The position numbers were made by a program, and so were the translations under genes. Shown here piece by piece: positions 13,946-49,362 of a DNA stretch of 64,000 nt (positions within the stretch are counted from its first letter, which is position 1; each line of letters begins with the position of its first letter). Source of the stretch: an uncultured delta proteobacterium (GTDB lineage Bacteria; Myxococcota_A; Polyangia; Polyangiales; Polyangiaceae); assembly GCA_963716725.1 (NCBI GenBank), contig CAVQUB010000006.1, positions 128,001-192,000 on the forward strand, written 5' to 3'. Under the pieces are notes generated by a model. The model saw nothing but the letters and a program-made list of their open reading frames with translations. It was not told where the DNA came from and ran no database searches.

Positions 13946-14357
13946 ATGGGCCCGATGGTGCTTCCCGTCCCGCGTGGCTTCAGCGAAGCCGAATACCTCG
14001 CCCTGGAGGCCGCGGGCGAAACCCGGCACGAGTTCGTGGGCGGGGCCATCGTCTCGATGGCCGGAGCCGAACCGCCGCACCATATTCTCTCGGCAAATGC
14101 CACGGCGCTGCTGGCGGCTTTGATCAATGGCAAGGCGTGTTGCTGGTCGAGGTGACCAGCGACACCGCCGAGGATTTCGATCGCGGCTCGAAGTTCGTGC
14201 ACTACCAGTCGATTTCCTCGCTGCGCGAGTACGTCATCGTATCGCACCGGGAGCGGCGGGTGGACCACCACCGACGCCTGCCCTCGGGACAATGGCTCGC
14301 GACCATCTCGAGCCGGCCCGAGGACGCGTTGATTCCGCCGGGAGCGTGGGAAGCTCG
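13946..14357 (+). pseudogene. Uma2/DUF820 family endonuclease pseudogene
   Basis: SEAEYLALE...RHEFVGG...MAGA is joined out of frame to [27 protein letters not shown]. The central segment is missing and the 3' end runs into an inverted-repeat-bounded element. Confidence 0.8.
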
Positions 14358-14581
14358 AGAATCTGTCGAACAAAGGGTGATGGATGGATGGCAGCGACTG
14401 CGGCGGCGGCCATTCGTACGGGTCGCTGCGCGTCGCCGACGTGATCCATCGGCCGGCGGGGCACGGCCCGTGCGGCAGACCGGCTCAGGTCGTCGTAGTG
14501 GTTGGGAGCGTCGAGGCGGCTGGCGTGTGGAAGGTCGGCTGCCGTCGACGCTGCGTCAGCCGAGCAGCTTTGGGGCGTGCT

Positions 14582-15387
14582 GGACCGCCCAGCTCCGAAC
14601 CGGCGACGGCGTACTGCACGTTGTACCCGGGGCGAAAACCGCCATCGCCCATCTTCATCACTCTCGCTTCGGCGTCGGTCGTCGACGCGCGCGCCGGTTT
14701 GTCGCTCGGCTTGCGCGTCTTTTGCAGCTCCGTCACCGTCACGATCGCGGCCGCCACGCGCTCCTGATAGTCCCGGGCCGCCGCCGCCCGAGCCGCATGT
14801 TGGGCACGCATGTATTCCGGGTCGTCCGCTGCTGCCAGCACCGCCTCGAGGTGCAGCTTGGCCTGCTCCCGGCACTCCAGGAGCGAGCCGTACGTCCGAA
14901 ACGATGGCGCGGTGGCGGCCGCTCGAATCCGCGTGCCGTCCTGCGCCACCAGATCGAGCGACCGGAGCCCCTTGTGCATCAGCGACGCGAGGATGTCGGT
15001 CATCAACTGGTCGAGCGCCTCGCCGTGGTCGACGCGAAACGACGACAGCGTGTGATGGCTCACCTTCAGGTCCCCGATGATCCAGCGATACGCATCGTCG
15101 CTGCCGGTCAGGCGCTCGATCTCACGCGCGCTGCCGACGGCCTGCGAAATGGCGTACAGCCAGAGCACCAGCTTCATTCGCGGTGACAGCGTCTTGCGCC
15201 CGACCGTGCCCTCCACCGCCTTCACACCGTCGAGAAACGCGCCGAGGTCCAGCGTGCCCACCACGTTCCAAAGCACGCGCGCCGGGTGCGTCGGCGCAAG
15301 CGCCTCCTCCGGCAGCTCGAATCGGATCACGCACTGGCTCCGCTGCGGCTCTTTGACTCGTGGCTCGCCACCGCGCTCGTCGTTCAT
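14582..15387 (-). pseudogene. IS1182-family transposase, C-terminally truncated
   Basis: HPARVLW...PRMKLVLWLYA...SAREIERL...AYRWI...HHTLSSFR (DUF772-like), VAQDGTRIRAAA and STTDAEARVMK...GYNVQ. Homology stops after about 270 aa. Confidence 0.88.
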
Positions 15388-15547
15388 GCCTACGGAACAG
15401 GATCCAGCCGATTTCGATTTTCGGAGACTATCATTTTGGGGTCTCCTCACATCTTCGTGGATGCGGGGAGTAGCCACCGTCGCGGAGGCCGCGCCGGCGA
15501 GTCGGGTCTTCGCCTGCACCAGGGGCTCCGGGGACGCCGGCGCTCCC

Positions 15548-16788
15548 TCAGCATCGCGCAGGCGACACGGTGGGGGTGAGCTCGGCGAGCGCCGCCCTGA
15601 GGAGCGGCTCGAGCCCAGGCTCGACGCCTCGAGCGCGCGCTTGCTCGACCGCGCGGCGAGCCTTCGCCGTGCGAAAGCCGAGCCGTACCAGTGCGGCCTG
15701 GATCTTCTCTGAGCTCTCGTCCCACTCGGGCGGCGCGTCCGGACCTGGCTTCTTCTCGGTCGCTTCAGCGATCTTCTTCCGGATGTGATCTTCGCCGAAG
15801 ACCTCTCGTGCGCGCAGGGCGTTGTGCGATGAACACAGGAGAGAGAGGTTCTCCACGGCGGCCGGACCGCCGAGCGCGTGCGGGTCGATGTGCTCGAGGG
15901 TGACCAAGCGCCGCTCCGAGCAGCGTCGGCCCTCGCCGTCGAGGTAGGTGCACTGCCCGCGGTCTCGCTCCCAGACGACGCGGGCGACCTCCACGGGGAC
16001 ATGCCGTGAGCCTGGCTCGATTGCGCGTCGCTTGCGCGGCTTGCCCGCGCCGAAGCGGCGCTTCGTCTCGGCCTCGAGCAACGCCTCGATGGCGCGCTCG
16101 AACAGCGCGGCGAGATCCCCGCTGGGGATGGCGTGGCCCAGGAGGTTCTGGGCCTTCACGAGCTTGTCGTGGAGCGCGGCGCTGGCGGTGAATTCGACCC
16201 AGTAGCTGGACGCGGAGAGCGGCTGCACTCGGGGCTTCGGAGCCGGCGCCGGCGCGGGCTCCGTGCACGCGCCGGGCGCCGCGGCGGAAGGACCATGCTC
16301 GAGCATGGTCGCTGGGCAGCCAGGCAAGGGTGTCACGCTCGGCAGCACGTCCGACCTTGGACGCGCTTCGTGACACCCGAAGGGCCGAAGGGGTGGAACC
16401 AGCGGGCCAGCAAACACTCGAGGTCACGCCGAGACTTGCCCCGAGCTTCGGCGAGCAGGGCATCGGCGTTCTCCGAGGTCAGCCGCCCCGACAAGAGGAA
16501 CAGGCCGGTCAGGTGGATTCGCCCGCTCCGGAGCTCGTCCAGGGCCTGGGGCAGGCGCTGGCAGAGCCGGGCCACGCCGACCCGCACCTGGGCCTCGTTC
16601 TCGGAGTAGCCGAGCCGCTCGGTGCAATACGAGGAGAGCGATGAGCACGCCGCCGCTGTGTACAAGCGGCGGCGGTCGAGCTCGCAGAGGTACGCGATGA
16701 GCTCGGCGGTGGCTTCGCGTTCGAGAGCCCGAAGGCTGGGCAAACGCGCGAGGAGAGCCTGGTTGTCGAGAGAGTCGAGCGCGAACAT
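15548..16788 (-). pseudogene. HNH endonuclease (DUF222-like N-terminus, RuvA-C-like tail), frameshifted by a 35-bp insertion at 16361-16395
   Basis: VWERDRGQCTY...C...LEHIDPHALGG...ENLSLLCSSHN HNH motif; C-terminal AALVRLGF...ARRAV...LLRAALAEL. Removing 16361-16395 restores one 402-codon ORF reading RWFPRSDV. Confidence 0.85.
16361..16395 (-). repeat. 27-bp-type micro-insertion, copy 1 (with internal 8-bp duplication)
   Basis: GTTC|CAC-CCCTTCGG-CCCTTCGG-GTGTC-ACGAAGCGCGT|CC on the minus strand. Confidence 0.85.
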
Positions 16789-16930
16789 GTCTCGGAATAC
16801 CACGAGGATTTTCGGTCCCGCCGCGGCCACCGAGAGCGACGAACGGGCAGCTCGACGCGTCGAAAGTCATCCGGGAGCCAGAGCGCCGTCGTGGATCATC
16901 CTCGCGCTCGCACGCGGCAGGTTTCGGACG

Positions 16931-16955
16931 ACGCGCTTCGTGATCCCCGGAGGGG
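16931..16955 (-). repeat. 27-bp-type micro-insertion, copy 2 (25 bp)
   Basis: GTTC|CCCCTCCGGGGATC-ACGAAGCGCGT|C on the minus strand. Same 3' 13-mer TCACGAAGCGCGT as copy 1. Confidence 0.75.
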
Positions 16956-17277
16956 GAACTCGTCGCTCGCGTGCGTCGTGCGTCGAGAAACGTGTCGAGC
17001 GAAATCGTACGAGAAGCGTTCTTTTTCGATTCGCAGCCAGCTGAAGCGTGCGCCAGAACCACGATGCTTGCACACCCTCCACACAAAGGGGGTGCACGGA
17101 TTGCCGTCGGTGGGCTTGGCAGCGGCAGCGTCGTGGGTGTGGCGGCGCGCACGTGAAGCGAAGGTCTCCGGCTCCTGCCTGCGCTCGTCCACATCACGCG
17201 CATGCGCGGCTTCCTCGATGCTCAGCGCCGAGCCGCGGGCGCGCAGGGCCGGACCTCGCAGCAGAGCGCGCTCGTTC

Positions 17278-17412
17278 CACCCCTTCGAGTGTCCCCCGTC
17301 GGGGACTTGCCCCTCCGGGTACTTCCCGGGGACTTCCAAGGGTCGTCCCACTTCTGGGACTTCCAAGGGTCGTCCCACTTCTGGGACTTCCAAGGGTCGT
17401 CACGAAGCGCGT
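17278..17412 (+). repeat. Nested cluster of micro-insertions, 135 bp = 5 x 27 bp, including a 27-bp tandem repeat at 17329-17401
   Basis: GTTC|CACCCCTTCGAGTGTC ... ACGAAGCGCGT|CC. The cluster parses exactly into five 16-nt and five 11-nt modules. Confidence 0.85.
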
Positions 17413-17721
17413 CCTCGGTGCGCGGGTGCCACCGAGCGCGCTCCATTTCCGCCTGCCGCACCGAACCGACCCCGGACGCTTGGAAAGGGCTCCGCTCGAG
17501 GCCCCTCAGGGCTGCGGCGCCGGCGGGGGGGGGCAGTCCGGAAGCAGGCCTGCGAAATTGTGCGTGCGGGACGATTGCCGTCGCCGCAGTCGTAAGTGAT
17601 CGTGAACGCGTCGCTTCTTGCGCCCGTCCGGCCCGACTACCGAGCAAGACTGGCTTCAGACGCCCACGAACATGTCAGGAGAGCCTCATTTTTCGACAGA
17701 TTCTTTAGCCGCAACCGAGCT

Positions 17722-18204
17722 TCATCGGGCGGAAAACGGAGACCCCGCCATGCACGCTTCCTGAGTGGCCACTTGGGTGCCGCAGCCGCCGAACCACTTC
17801 ACCCAGCCGGCCGCCGTCGAGTCCTGGTGGACCACCCAGCAAGGCGCGTCCGGCCCAGAGGCAGTGCAGGTCATCATGGCGCCCGGAACGTTCTTCGCGA
17901 GCCAGCACCCGATGAACTGCTGCGCTCCGCCCGGATCCGCCGCGGGCCGTGCGGTGATCACCACGCAGGCGGGCGTGGCCTTGCACGACTGCTCGTTCAG
18001 GCCGTCACACTCGTTCGTCGTTCGGGGCTGACAGCTTTCGGTGGCGCTGGCGTCCCAAGTGCAGCCGGCCGTGTGCGCACACAGCTCCGCGGCGCGCCCG
18101 CGGCAGAACGAAGCCTGCTGCTGCGAGCCCGGGTCGTCGTTGTCGTTCGAGCAAGCGCCGAGGGCAAAGGCGCAACCAATCACAAATACGGTCCAGGGTT
18201 TCAT
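17722..18204 (-). CDS. Cys-rich lipoprotein
   Basis: MKPWTVFVIGCAFALGAC lipobox, many Cys, GGAGG upstream. Confidence 0.7.
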   Translation of the reverse strand: MKPWTVFVIGCAFALGACSNDNDDPGSQQQASFCRGRAAELCAHTAGCTWDASATESCQPRTTNECDGLNEQSCKATPACVVITARPAADPGGAQQFIGCWLAKNVPGAMMTCTASGPDAPCWVVHQDSTAAGWVKWFGGCGTQVATQEACMAGSPFSAR

Positions 18205-18238
18205 CGTGCCTCCTCTCATCGCATCTGGGTGTCCACGC

Positions 18239-19678
18239 TCAGTCCGCCGCGGCGTCTCGCTCGGGCGCCGGGCCCGGCCTGCACTCGATCAAGCTGAGCT
18301 CCATCGCAAGGCCGCGCGGTCGCGCCACCAGGAGCTTGCCCTTGGAAATCGCCAACAGATCGGCGCTGCGCACCGCCGGCTCCACGCCTAGCGCATCGAG
18401 CAGGTTCGCGCTGGGGCCGAGGGCCCCGATCCGGGTCGCATCCGAGACGCTGTCGAGCGAGAGCCACGCGTGGGGCGCGCTCGGATCCTTCGGGGCGTCG
18501 TCCACCAAGATCGCCGGCACCCCGACCCCGGGTCCGCGGTCGTCGAGCAGCCGCCGTTCCGCCGTGCCGTCGGGCTTCACGCTACCGATGTAGATCTGCC
18601 GCTCGTCCGTGCCTGGGGCTGAGTCGTCGTCGCGCCACGAAAACAAGAGCGATCCGTCCGGACCTGGGGCGAGGTCGAAGACCAGCACGTGAGAGTTCTT
18701 CGGCGTGATGGCCTTCGGCTCGGAGACCGCGACCCCGTTGTGATCGAGGGGAACCGCGCTGAGGTAGCGTTCACCGAGATCGACCAGGGACGGTTCGGGC
18801 AGGTCGGCCGACGCGCTCGCTGCGGGCTTGGGCAGCGGGGCCCTCGGTTTCGGCGCCGCCGTCCGGGAGATCCACGCCGCCCAGAATCCGCCAGGACGCC
18901 GGACGACGCGCGGTGCCTCGGCGTCTTCGCCGCGCAGCGATACGATGCGCTTCTTGCTGACGTTCGAGATGTCCTTGCGGGCAAAGCTCGAAGTGACGAT
19001 GACTCCGTGTTTGTCCGCGGCGCTCCACTCGTCCCAGATGGCGACGCCGCGCTCGGGACCGAGTTCGAGACTCGCCACCCGAGACTCGTCACGGCTGGAC
19101 GCGATCTCGGCGCCGAGCACGACCTCGGCCTTCGCCGCACCGGGCCGGATCGCCACCAACCGGAGCAACTCGCCGCCGGCATCGCTGTCGTGCACCAGCG
19201 CGACGAGATCCGCGTCGAACACCGCCAGCTCGGGAGGATCCGGATCGCCGTGCAGCCTGCCGAGCTCGACGAGCTTGCCGCCGCCCACTTCCGCATCGAG
19301 GAGCGCGACGGTCGCGATGGTCTTGCCGGCCCGCGCCCACAGCGCCGACACCGCGAAGCTACCGGCAAAGGGCACGGCTCCCCCGAGCTCCGCGGCGAAG
19401 GGCAGCGCGGGCTGGTCCAGCCCGTCGTCCGCTTCGTCCTCCGCGCCGGCGTCGGGAACGGCCTTGGTACCCTCGCCCAGGGTGAAACGCTTGCCCGGAA
19501 AGGGCTCGCTGCAACGCGACGCAATGGCCACCGGCGCCAGCGCCGCGCTCGGAGGCCCCGCGGGTGTGGGCTCGGGTGAGCGCCGTTTGCACGCGGTCGC
19601 CGCGACCAGCACCGCCAAAATCGGCACGAGCAGACGGGACGTGCGGCGCGAATTGCAATGCATGGCTCGGCGACGCAT
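18239..19678 (-). CDS. Hypothetical lipoprotein (beta-rich)
   Basis: 479-aa ORF with hydrophobic leader ending ATAC and good codon usage. Confidence 0.7.
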   Translation of the reverse strand: MRRRAMHCNSRRTSRLLVPILAVLVAATACKRRSPEPTPAGPPSAALAPVAIASRCSEPFPGKRFTLGEGTKAVPDAGAEDEADDGLDQPALPFAAELGGAVPFAGSFAVSALWARAGKTIATVALLDAEVGGGKLVELGRLHGDPDPPELAVFDADLVALVHDSDAGGELLRLVAIRPGAAKAEVVLGAEIASSRDESRVASLELGPERGVAIWDEWSAADKHGVIVTSSFARKDISNVSKKRIVSLRGEDAEAPRVVRRPGGFWAAWISRTAAPKPRAPLPKPAASASADLPEPSLVDLGERYLSAVPLDHNGVAVSEPKAITPKNSHVLVFDLAPGPDGSLLFSWRDDDSAPGTDERQIYIGSVKPDGTAERRLLDDRGPGVGVPAILVDDAPKDPSAPHAWLSLDSVSDATRIGALGPSANLLDALGVEPAVRSADLLAISKGKLLVARPRGLAMELSLIECRPGPAPERDAAAD

Positions 19679-48324: not shown

Positions 48325-49362
48325 GTGAGCAAGACCCTGGTGCTGCTCTGGCTCGGTACGTCCGCTCCGCAGGCGACCCACGAGACTGCCCTCGACTCCT
48401 GGTCTCGGGCGCGCTGGGTCCAGCTGGCCCCTCCGGCGGAAGCCTCCCCCGAAGGCCTCATCTACGACGACGCCTTGGTGTCCAAGATCGATGAGTGGCT
48501 CGAGCAAGCCCGACTCGCCGCAAGCTCGCTCGACGACGCCGCGGCACGCGAGCGCCTCGCCGAGGTCGAAGGTGCTTTGCGTCAGCACCCGGCTCTGCCT
48601 CAGGCCGCCTGGCTCATGGCCGAGTCGCTTCATGTCGAGGCCACGATCGCCGCCCGCGCCGCTCCCGCTGACCGCCCGAAGCTGCTCGCTCGCGCCGCGG
48701 CCCTCGAAGGAAGACGCGCGCCGGCCTTTGGCGAACCCGGTGACCCAACGGCTGCAACCTCGACCCAGTCGAAGATCGCGGTGCGCGGGATGCGCAGCGC
48801 CGACCAGCTCTACTTCGACGGCGTGCCCGTGGCGCGCCGCCTCGAAGTAGCAACCGGCGAGCACCACGTGCGCGTGCTGCGTCGGCAGCGCGTGGTGTGG
48901 GCCGGCTGGGTGTCCGTGGCAGGCTCGGGGGACGTCACGCTGCCCGTGGGCAGCCCCGTCGCGTGCAGCCTCGACGACCTCGAAGGCGTGAGCCTGCGCA
49001 TGCGCAAGGTCGTCGTGCCCACGGGCGTGGGCTGCGAGCGCTGGGCCGTGGCGCGACCGGCGGCGCGCGGCGGAATCGAAATCGCGTCCTGTCGCGGCTC
49101 CGAGTGCGGTCCGCTGATGGTGTGGAAGGCGCACTACGGCGCCATCTACCAGGGCCCGCCCCAACCCCCACCGGAGCCGGGCTTCCCGGCCTGGGCGACC
49201 TGGGCGCTGGCGGGCGCCGGCGCCGCGGTGCTCACCACGGGCGTGCTCTGGCAGGCCGGCGCCTTCGACGAGCCCGAACCCGGCGCGACGCGCTTCGTGT
49301 TCAACGGACCCGGGCAGCAGCAGAAGCTCGGAGCTAGCCCCAGCGCCTTCGGGCGTCGCTGA
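48325..49362 (+). CDS. Hypothetical membrane-anchored protein (PEGA-like segment)
   Basis: 3' part of ORF 47572..49362; LYFDG...GEHHVRV; C-terminal TM. Confidence 0.6.
   Translation: MSKTLVLLWLGTSAPQATHETALDSWSRARWVQLAPPAEASPEGLIYDDALVSKIDEWLEQARLAASSLDDAAARERLAEVEGALRQHPALPQAAWLMAESLHVEATIAARAAPADRPKLLARAAALEGRRAPAFGEPGDPTAATSTQSKIAVRGMRSADQLYFDGVPVARRLEVATGEHHVRVLRRQRVVWAGWVSVAGSGDVTLPVGSPVACSLDDLEGVSLRMRKVVVPTGVGCERWAVARPAARGGIEIASCRGSECGPLMVWKAHYGAIYQGPPQPPPEPGFPAWATWALAGAGAAVLTTGVLWQAGAFDEPEPGATRFVFNGPGQQQKLGASPSAFGRR

Follow-up and report, generated by a model that had tools for sequence, protein, structure and literature searches.

Non-autonomous mobile modules of 27 bp form a lineage-specific family in a Polyangiaceae genome

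Three short palindromic sequences lie in and beside a DUF222-HNH endonuclease gene in a 64,000-nt stretch of a Polyangiaceae genome (hereafter the window, C6:128001-192000 of a 7.9-Mb assembly in 35 contigs with 67.8% GC). They raise the question of whether they are copies of an extremely small mobile element and, if so, what moves it. A preliminary description of this DNA had reported the three sequences, each with GTTC before it and C after it, and all of them were found where it had placed them and on the strands that it had given. We find that the three loci belong to a family of non-autonomous mobile modules, 27 bp long and specific to this lineage, and that these modules insert directly after a short motif mirroring their own 3′ end.

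The units and their two tails

Each unit consists of a 12-nt GC hairpin (4-bp stem, 4-nt loop) and a 15-nt tail. The tail defines two types: type A tails end in RTCRCGAAGCGCGTC and are found in ~60 copies, and the type B tail, ACTTCCMAGGGTCGT, is found in 104 copies, of which 44 are spaced 27 bp apart in head-to-tail arrays. The preliminary description had also arrived at a unit of 27 bp, but drew it as a 16-mer joined to an 11-mer; the size holds, but a 12-nt hairpin with a 15-nt tail ending in ...GCGCGTC describes the unit better, the placement of the junctions being ambiguous by 1-3 nt either way.

The three loci in the window are all of type A. Copy 1 (16360-16395, minus strand), 35 nt in total and read at 16361-16395 as CACCCCTTCGG+CCCTTCGG+GTGTCACGAAGCGCGT, has the hairpin CACCCC-TTCG-GGGTG and the tail TCACGAAGCGCGTC, and contains an 8-bp duplication, CCCTTCGG standing twice in tandem at 16377-16392 on the same strand; it lies inside the DUF222-HNH gene, whose frame it shifts. 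Copy 2 (16930-16956, minus strand) is a 27-bp unit, CCCCCTCCGGGGATCACGAAGCGCGTC, upstream of the HNH gene, and includes the sequence first noticed there, CCCCTCCGGGGATCACGAAGCGCGT, at 16931-16955 on the minus strand. Copy 3 (17278-17412 as a whole, plus strand) is a 16-mer, 108 bp and then an 11-mer. Its head, CACCCCTTCGAGTGTC (17278-17293, plus strand), is the 16-mer with one mismatch, its filling (17294-17400, plus strand) is made of four 27-nt type B periods counting from C17293, and its tail, CACGAAGCGCGTC (17401-17413, plus strand), is of type A and holds the 11-mer. The shared 13-mer TCACGAAGCGCGT occurs exactly three times in the window, where shuffling leads one to expect 0.28 occurrences; with at most one mismatch allowed there are four matches, a number reached by 0 of 100 shuffles. 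The fourth, ACACGAAGCGCGT at 49288-49300 on the minus strand, has no hairpin preceding it and is probably a chance match or a decayed tail.

Across the whole genome, the 11-mer ACGAAGCGCGT occurs 43 times and is preceded by a small GC hairpin in about half of the cases. With a position weight matrix for type A that was derived from 18 unique 27-mers, the genome yields 64 sites above a score of 20 and 58 above a score of 25, and a shuffled genome yields none at either score. The type A unit reads N-CCC, a 4-nt loop (e.g. CTTC, CTCC or CGTC) and GGG-N′, then RTC-RCGAAGCGCGTC; the type B tail follows similar hairpins, which are often identical to a type A hairpin. For the analysis of stem covariation, 12-mers were picked by the type B tail alone, with pairing not required (n = 125). 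The four stem pairs are intact in 110-121 of these 125. Substitutions in them are compensatory, with C-G in 82, A-T in 16 and G-C in 14 of the 12-mers at position 1/12, and C-G in 55, T-A in 53 and A-T in 9 at position 4/9. No Rfam family matched window 14000-18500 at E ≤ 1.

The family is restricted to one genus and two genomes beyond it. Type A units are present in 8 of the 41 related genomes searched, and a reversed-pattern control gave 0; the counts for the seven genomes of the genus are 24, 3, 11, 6, 0, 6 and 32, and two genomes of other genera have two each. Type B units are present in 6 of the 41. One of the two genomes outside the genus, G019, has two copies of type A together with two of type B.

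Insertion, nesting and the flanking motif

The three loci lie within a multicopy unit of ~3.3 kb that carries the DUF222-HNH gene (window 14350-17705, one genomic copy of several). It has close paralogues on C15 (two, C15a and C15b), C4 and C11, as well as a further subfamily at 77% identity with at least seven copies. Compared with C4, C15a and C15b, copy 2 is an excess of exactly 27 bp, the empty site reading GACGC(G/T)TC|GT. Copy 1 is absent from C15a, C15b, C11 and seven distant paralogues (ARSFPRSDV or ARWAPRSDV), and its removal from the window restores the HNH frame to ...ARWFPRSDV..., which bears out the earlier proposal that it is an insertion that broke this frame. The peptide beginning HPFGCH, foreseen for a unit surviving in frame, is present in an intact paralogue, C23, that reads ARWF-HPFGCHGVR-PQSDV. 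A 343-bp stretch with copy 3 (window 17222-17564) is missing from C15a and C15b, a presence/absence that may be read as insertion or as deletion.

Independent contigs from Logan (four runs of four studies, among which X1 may be the source sample) contain the same alternatives. A contig from another metagenome, run X6, skips exactly the copy-1 stretch 16360-16394 (35 nt), and contigs of runs X1 and X6 skip the stretch with copy 3 (joint 17218 to 17561). One of the two C15-type empty forms is found in X1 and X6, and contigs of X5 and X6 run through copy 2.

The same difference of 27 bp recurs at other places in the genome: between a paralogue set on C1 with type A units at 118613 and 173760 and two empty copies; between an IS91-like transposase gene with a type A copy and four empty copies; and within a family of 153-bp miniature transposable elements with inverted repeats (MITEs), for which there are one empty copy, seven filled copies, five with footprints and three with an insertion sequence (IS). 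In all, nine of nine type A filled/empty pairs and eight type B sites differ by exactly 27 bp. The nine type A events show no target duplication beyond the 1-3 nt of junction ambiguity, as the preliminary description had held. One further type B site differs by 28 bp and one by ~21 bp, the tally of type B events being a lower bound (at least 10 sites). Thus 17 of the 19 scored events of both types are exactly 27 bp, and single units explain all scored insertions. The alignment to empty sites that had been suggested as a check yields filled and empty alleles in paralogues, in orthologues and in independent metagenome contigs, and the proposed very small, non-autonomous inserting unit stands.

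Orthologues extend this comparison to conserved genes. In a 485-aa gene on C9, nine extra codons are missing from six of six congeners and from 80 of 80 Polyangiaceae homologues (DPDGP|FGHQ), and in a 1248-aa gene on C13 the type A copy is missing from both orthologues found. In the reverse direction, a repeat family of G006 and a locus of G002 are filled where the genome studied here (G000) is empty; among 20 loci of these two genomes searched by blastn, a joint G000 orthologue was obtained for three, all of them empty, and the other 17 are uninformative. The length of the unit is a multiple of three and its common variant is free of stops in every frame, and therefore copies persist in frame within genes; insertions of nine codons are tolerated within a conserved motif of a widespread gene. 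With a home-made gene caller that marks 83% of the genome as coding and was validated only for the genes named here, 44 of the 64 type A copies are intergenic, 10 lie in the sense direction within open reading frames, seven are antisense and three are partial.

Units also insert into one another. The nesting of copies claimed for the window is borne out by copy 3, whose 108 bp are four 27-bp periods of type B within type A. This filling comprises a type B unit with a nested, partly deleted type B unit (17293-17346) and two tandem type B units, CCCACTTCTGGGACTTCCAAGGGTCGT, at 17347-17373 and 17374-17400. The paralogue C4 has the identical arrangement of head, filling and tail, its filling being of like structure with more units. 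B is inserted into A at GGGT[A/G]T|C in many unrelated loci and into B at ACTT|CC, and from one paralogue to another the arrays vary in length by multiples of 27. Units nest and form head-to-tail arrays because the junctions within or after existing elements fit the flank motif.

Two places within the 3.3-kb unit are less regular. At 15713-15731, within the portion of the HNH gene for the C-terminus, the window and both C15 copies are empty, and the paralogues on C11 (22405) and C4 carry at least one type B unit; the native bases there, GTCCCACTCGG, look like a B-B junction, and the forms differ in size by ~21 rather than 27. At window 17064-17100 there is a native hairpin, CACCCTCC-ACACAAA-GGGGGTG, where C15b has 15 extra bases that are a type B tail alone (TACTTCCCAGGGTCG). 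This tail without a hairpin of its own does not fit a simple rule of whole-unit insertion.

The preliminary description took GTTC to be the target of the family. GTTC is, however, the flanking 4-mer at none of 35 independent type A sites and lies within 2 nt of the hairpin at only one of them; it is a property of the three window loci only. What precedes the units is instead related to how they end. For type A, which ends in ...GTC, the last flanking base is C at 28 of the 35 independent sites (p = 3e-8), and the flanking 4-mer fits [CG]T[CGT]C at 12 of 35 (background 3.2%, p = 5e-10). For type B, which ends in ...CGT, the flank ends in GT at 17 of 31 sites (p = 1e-14) and ends in T at 27 of 31. 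Type B thus sits after ...(Y)GT, and [C/G]T[C/T]C often precedes type A, the match of the flank to the unit's own 3′ end extending over 1 to 7 nt. These bases are native to the target, since empty sites already carry them: the pre-insertion sites read CTTC, GTCC, CGTC/CTTC, GTTC/TTCC, GCCC and CTGT.

The hairpins in turn receive a larger element. In the paralogue C4, a 1465-bp IS4-family element (C4:158803-160267; NCBIfam NF033590, 295 bits) stands between two copies of CCCTTCGG. All seven full-length copies of this element, as well as two partial ends, lie at one position in type A or type B hairpins, with the 8-bp duplication CCCKTCGG, and loose contig ends of runs X5 and X8 at 16384 and 16385 read into IS ends. 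Six loci have the duplication but not the IS, namely copy 1 of the window and five MITE copies. The duplication in copy 1 looks like an excision footprint of the IS4-family element after cut-and-paste movement. The element uses the hairpins as landing pads, leaving footprints that consist of the duplication only. The 153-bp MITE itself is located at C8:149396-149575 and at least 15 other loci, none of them in the window, and has the terminal inverted repeats CTGAAGGTCTGTCGAA and TTCGACAGCTCTTGAG; most of its copies hold a type A unit, and the copy at C6:120298 is empty.

Candidate agents of movement

The agent that we tentatively favour is an HUH nuclease of the Y2 kind, as in IS91 and ISCR elements, acting in trans. 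Units would move as single strands, and the enzyme would nick after one short motif present in the 5′ flank of the donor, at the 3′ end of the unit and in the target; transfer would be of the rolling-circle type, and read-through would yield arrays. We favour such an enzyme because the IS91 family makes no duplication, uses (C/G)T(T/C)(C/G) targets, has targets equal to the terminal tetranucleotide and gives rise to truncated mobile forms, and because read-through explains the arrays. Passages of PMC13181058 state that IS91-family elements cause no target duplication and that their target tetranucleotide can equal that of terIS; for IS801 and IS1294, the target tetranucleotide is that of terIS cleavage, which adjoins a subterminal palindrome. 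PMC3189936 also describes truncated derivatives of IS801 that are mobile and whose end can be any consensus tetranucleotide. The units are like these elements in the lack of duplication; they may also be like them in a target of the (C/G)T(T/C)(C/G) kind and in a terminal tetranucleotide that can be the same as the target (cf. parts of PMC13181058), as well as in a subterminal palindrome by the cleavage site, in action in trans and in truncated mobile forms (parts of PMC13181058 and PMC3189936).

For the link to IS91/HUH elements that the preliminary description had drawn, the evidence points both ways. In its favour are 14 Y2_Tnp hits in the G000 genome, the [CG]T[CGT]C flanks and the lack of duplication. 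Furthermore, 11 of the 66 independent sites are found no more than 1 kb from Y2_Tnp hits, which make up 0.38% of the genome (p = 2e-15), and one IS91-like subfamily holds at least eight separate in-frame units. The ends of the resident elements do not resemble the units: both IS91-like subfamilies end in ...GGCAGTTCG..CCTTACGCGC| on the right, unlike A or B, and their left ends are unrelated, so derivation of the units from IS91-like ends was rejected for want of sequence likeness.

These ends are one of several points that weigh against a Y2 agent. Y2 genes are present in 30 of the 41 relatives (all seven of the genus and 23 others), including G004 with four hits and zero elements, and no Y2 hit was obtained in G019 despite its units. 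The whole unit is only 27 nt long, whereas the smallest IS801 derivative reported in PMC3189936 has 229 nt, and the experimental mini-IS91 described in a passage of PMC13181058 used 82-89 bp per end. GTTC/CTTG is not the rule, and the flank motif is loose, just 12 of the 35 type A sites fitting it in a comparison that is unoriented as to the side and strand of the IS91 tetranucleotide relative to the unit strand. That sites cluster in IS and HNH genes may simply be due to insertions being tolerated in these genes. No strand bias was found with respect to GC skew (18 vs. 13) or gene direction (22 vs. 23), in a comparison of weak power given a mean absolute skew of 0.012. Finally, the folding energy of the hairpins is no better than that of shuffles (z -0.6 to -1.05), which speaks against a strong structure; because the energies are unremarkable, the case for a structure rests on the covariation.

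A stronger version of the Y2 proposal would make the 27-nt units complete rolling-circle substrates, with nick motif, origin-like hairpin and terminator motif, and hence the smallest transposable units yet. We regard this as unlikely. Under it, Y2 HUH movement would involve single-strand excision or copying, arrays would be unterminated rolling-circle products, and insertions of nine codons would be a steady supply of new protein loops. In the resident IS91/ISCR-like elements at C8:414066-417262 and C13:110100-114500, the right 1.1 kb is partly re-duplicated in tandem, every repeat ending in the same ...CCTTACGCGC; rolling-circle transposition that failed to terminate would be expected to leave this pattern.

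The mirroring of 2-6 nt between flank and unit is explained just as well by microhomology-primed templated synthesis, a serious alternative that we consider possible, if less probable. Here a template switch at a stalled fork or during break repair would suffice, with no dedicated transposase: a 3′ end in ...GT or ...TC pairs with a unit end or its flank, one 27-nt period is copied as far as the same motif and synthesis switches back, arrays later growing and shrinking by slippage. In agreement with such priming, the left flank of type B matches the 3′ end of the unit over 2-6 nt (GGTCGT twice, CGT three times, GT four times) and that of type A over 1-7 nt; the empty site of copy 2 already reads CGCGTC, and the sequence targeted in C9, GGGCCCTTCGGTCAC, is similar to the element's head. 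The odd sizes (the events of 28 bp and ~21 bp, and the 15-nt type B tail alone beside a native hairpin in C15b), the occurrence of identical hairpins with either tail, and the fact that no enzyme, whether Y1, Y2 or HNH, co-occurs cleanly with the elements point the same way. However, homology of 2 nt should yield many partial or extended copies, and 17 of 19 events are exactly 27 bp; pure copying does not require a hairpin, yet the hairpin is kept by compensatory changes; and fork stalling is universal, whereas the family is limited to one genus and two further genomes.

It is improbable that the multicopy DUF222-HNH endonuclease itself mobilises or seeds the units, for example by nicking hairpins and so provoking templated repair. 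Copies 1-3, type B arrays and another type B site do lie within or just upstream of HNH paralogues, and 6 of the 66 independent sites are within 1 kb of HNH-DUF222 hits that cover 0.63% of the genome (p = 4e-6). The gene is also present in all seven genomes of the genus, with 26, 12, 21, 24, 5, 7 and 30 hits that roughly track the type A counts given above; the seven genomes are related, however, and therefore this correlation is weak evidence. Moreover, G008 has 27 hits without elements, and G019 and G023 have elements without an HNH hit (E ≤ 1e-20). The family has no assigned function, Pfam giving just HNH and RuvA_C.

Movement of the units as classical repetitive extragenic palindromic (REP) elements or REPINs, by a RAYT or an IS200/IS605-type Y1 transposase, is more improbable still. 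The units are small GC hairpins in high copy number, most type A copies (44/64, by a crude gene caller) are between genes, an IS targets them as is the case with REPs, and there is one good Y1 gene in the genome. This gene scores as IS200 (62.7 bits, cut-off 55) and not as RAYT (24.6 bits, cut-off 80), however, and it is not flanked by units; the GTAG tag is absent and strand bias was not seen. The co-occurrence with RAYT or Y1 genes that had been suggested as a check turned out negative in five of six congeners: no Y1 hit was obtained in G001, G002, G004, G005 or G006, although G002 has 11 and G006 has 32 type A copies. On the IS200-like score, the unflanked gene and its absence from these five congeners, RAYT/IS200 was rejected as the mobiliser.

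It is hardly credible that the units are immobile, whether as a conserved functional motif (such as a site for protein binding or a terminator), as an artefact of assembly or by chance: the lack of an Rfam match and the resemblance of the genome to a metagenome-assembled one would allow it, but the same sites occur both filled and empty among paralogues, among orthologues and in independent metagenome contigs, copies lie within conserved coding sequence, and a shuffled genome gave 0 hits.

Related elements and the genomic setting

The units exist in over 150 copies, in spacers, in other mobile DNA, in each other and in frame within genes, and are among the smallest bacterial mobile DNA units seen. 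They put a lower bound of 27 nt on the size of a mobile element, and at this size do without terminal repeats and without duplication. A literature search outside subscription journals found no description of these elements in Myxococcota. Nevertheless, the preliminary description overstated the case in finding no named element to match them: small dispersed repeats (SDRs), REPs within genes and Rickettsia palindromic elements (RPEs) behave alike.

SDR1-8 of heterocyst-forming cyanobacteria are reportedly "very small mobile repeated elements". SDRs are ~20-30 bp long and nest in each other and in larger repeats. The likeness is one of behaviour only, namely very small modules, precise insertion, nesting and a transposase that is not known. 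SDRs belong to another phylum and have other sequences, whereas the units described here have a fixed 12+15-nt hairpin-plus-tail layout with two tail types, a flank that mirrors the 3′ end of the unit, an array period of 27 bp and copies that are translated inside genes. RPE-1 is ~100-150 bp long, whereas the unit here is 27 bp (9 codons) and resides in a large, GC-rich, free-living genome. What RPEs have in common with the units is that they are selfish palindromic DNA kept in frame within working protein genes (passage in PMC3733652).

With REPs, as treated in parts of PMC3733652, the units share a size in the range of 20-40 bp, a GC hairpin, CGTC at one end, a mostly intergenic but sometimes in-frame intragenic location, a CGTC class without a dedicated transposase, and use as IS targets. 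REPs of the CGTC class have stems of 8-9 bp that start with AT, a loop of 4-5 nt, a tag adjoining the stem and a CCA tail (Di Nocera et al. 2013, PMC3733652, in part). The units instead have a GC-only stem of 4-5 bp, with CGTC at the far 3′ end, 11 nt past the stem, and they form head-to-tail arrays and nest in themselves, as opposed to the head-to-head dimers described in that part of PMC3733652. Derivation as a MITE of a DDE transposon was rejected, as a hairpin is present at just one end of the unit and the target is not duplicated. Copy 2, GAGTTCCCC...GGGGAT, recalls type I-E repeats of CRISPR (short palindromic repeats that are clustered and regularly interspaced); a CRISPR repeat was rejected too, as the arrays with a 27-bp period are free of spacers, most copies are solitary and GTTC is not general. 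The units thus fail the defining features of GTAG and CGTC REPs, RAYT systems, MITEs and CRISPR repeats.

The family constitutes a clean natural data set, in which alleles with and without a unit are available from paralogues, from orthologues and from environmental populations, along with two tails on shared hairpins and nesting in steps of exactly 27. It can be used to ask what moves REP-like DNA without a transposase, a question that is open for CGTC REPs and SDRs. The units also matter for the annotation of Polyangiaceae genomes, where they can interrupt gene calls or make them longer.

The assembly is 84% complete and resembles a metagenome-assembled genome. Homologues of one window gene all come from Polyangiaceae (Myxococcota) genomes, the majority of which are metagenome-assembled. 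The DUF222-HNH gene of the window (15548-16830, minus strand) is split into two frames by copy 1; its intact paralogue has 445 aa, and Pfam recognises only the HNH and RuvA_C domains in it. In several genomes of G000-G008, most full-length HNH-DUF222 matches hold one in-frame TGA (TAA or TAG in G008), which could mean two genes in the same frame or read-through. Downstream of the HNH gene, a frame at window 14995-15201 (minus strand) matches DUF772, the N-terminal part of IS5-type transposases, and is probably a fragment of another IS. At the right end of the 3.3-kb unit, window 17680-17700 holds TTTTCGACAG, which resembles the ends of the 153-bp MITE.

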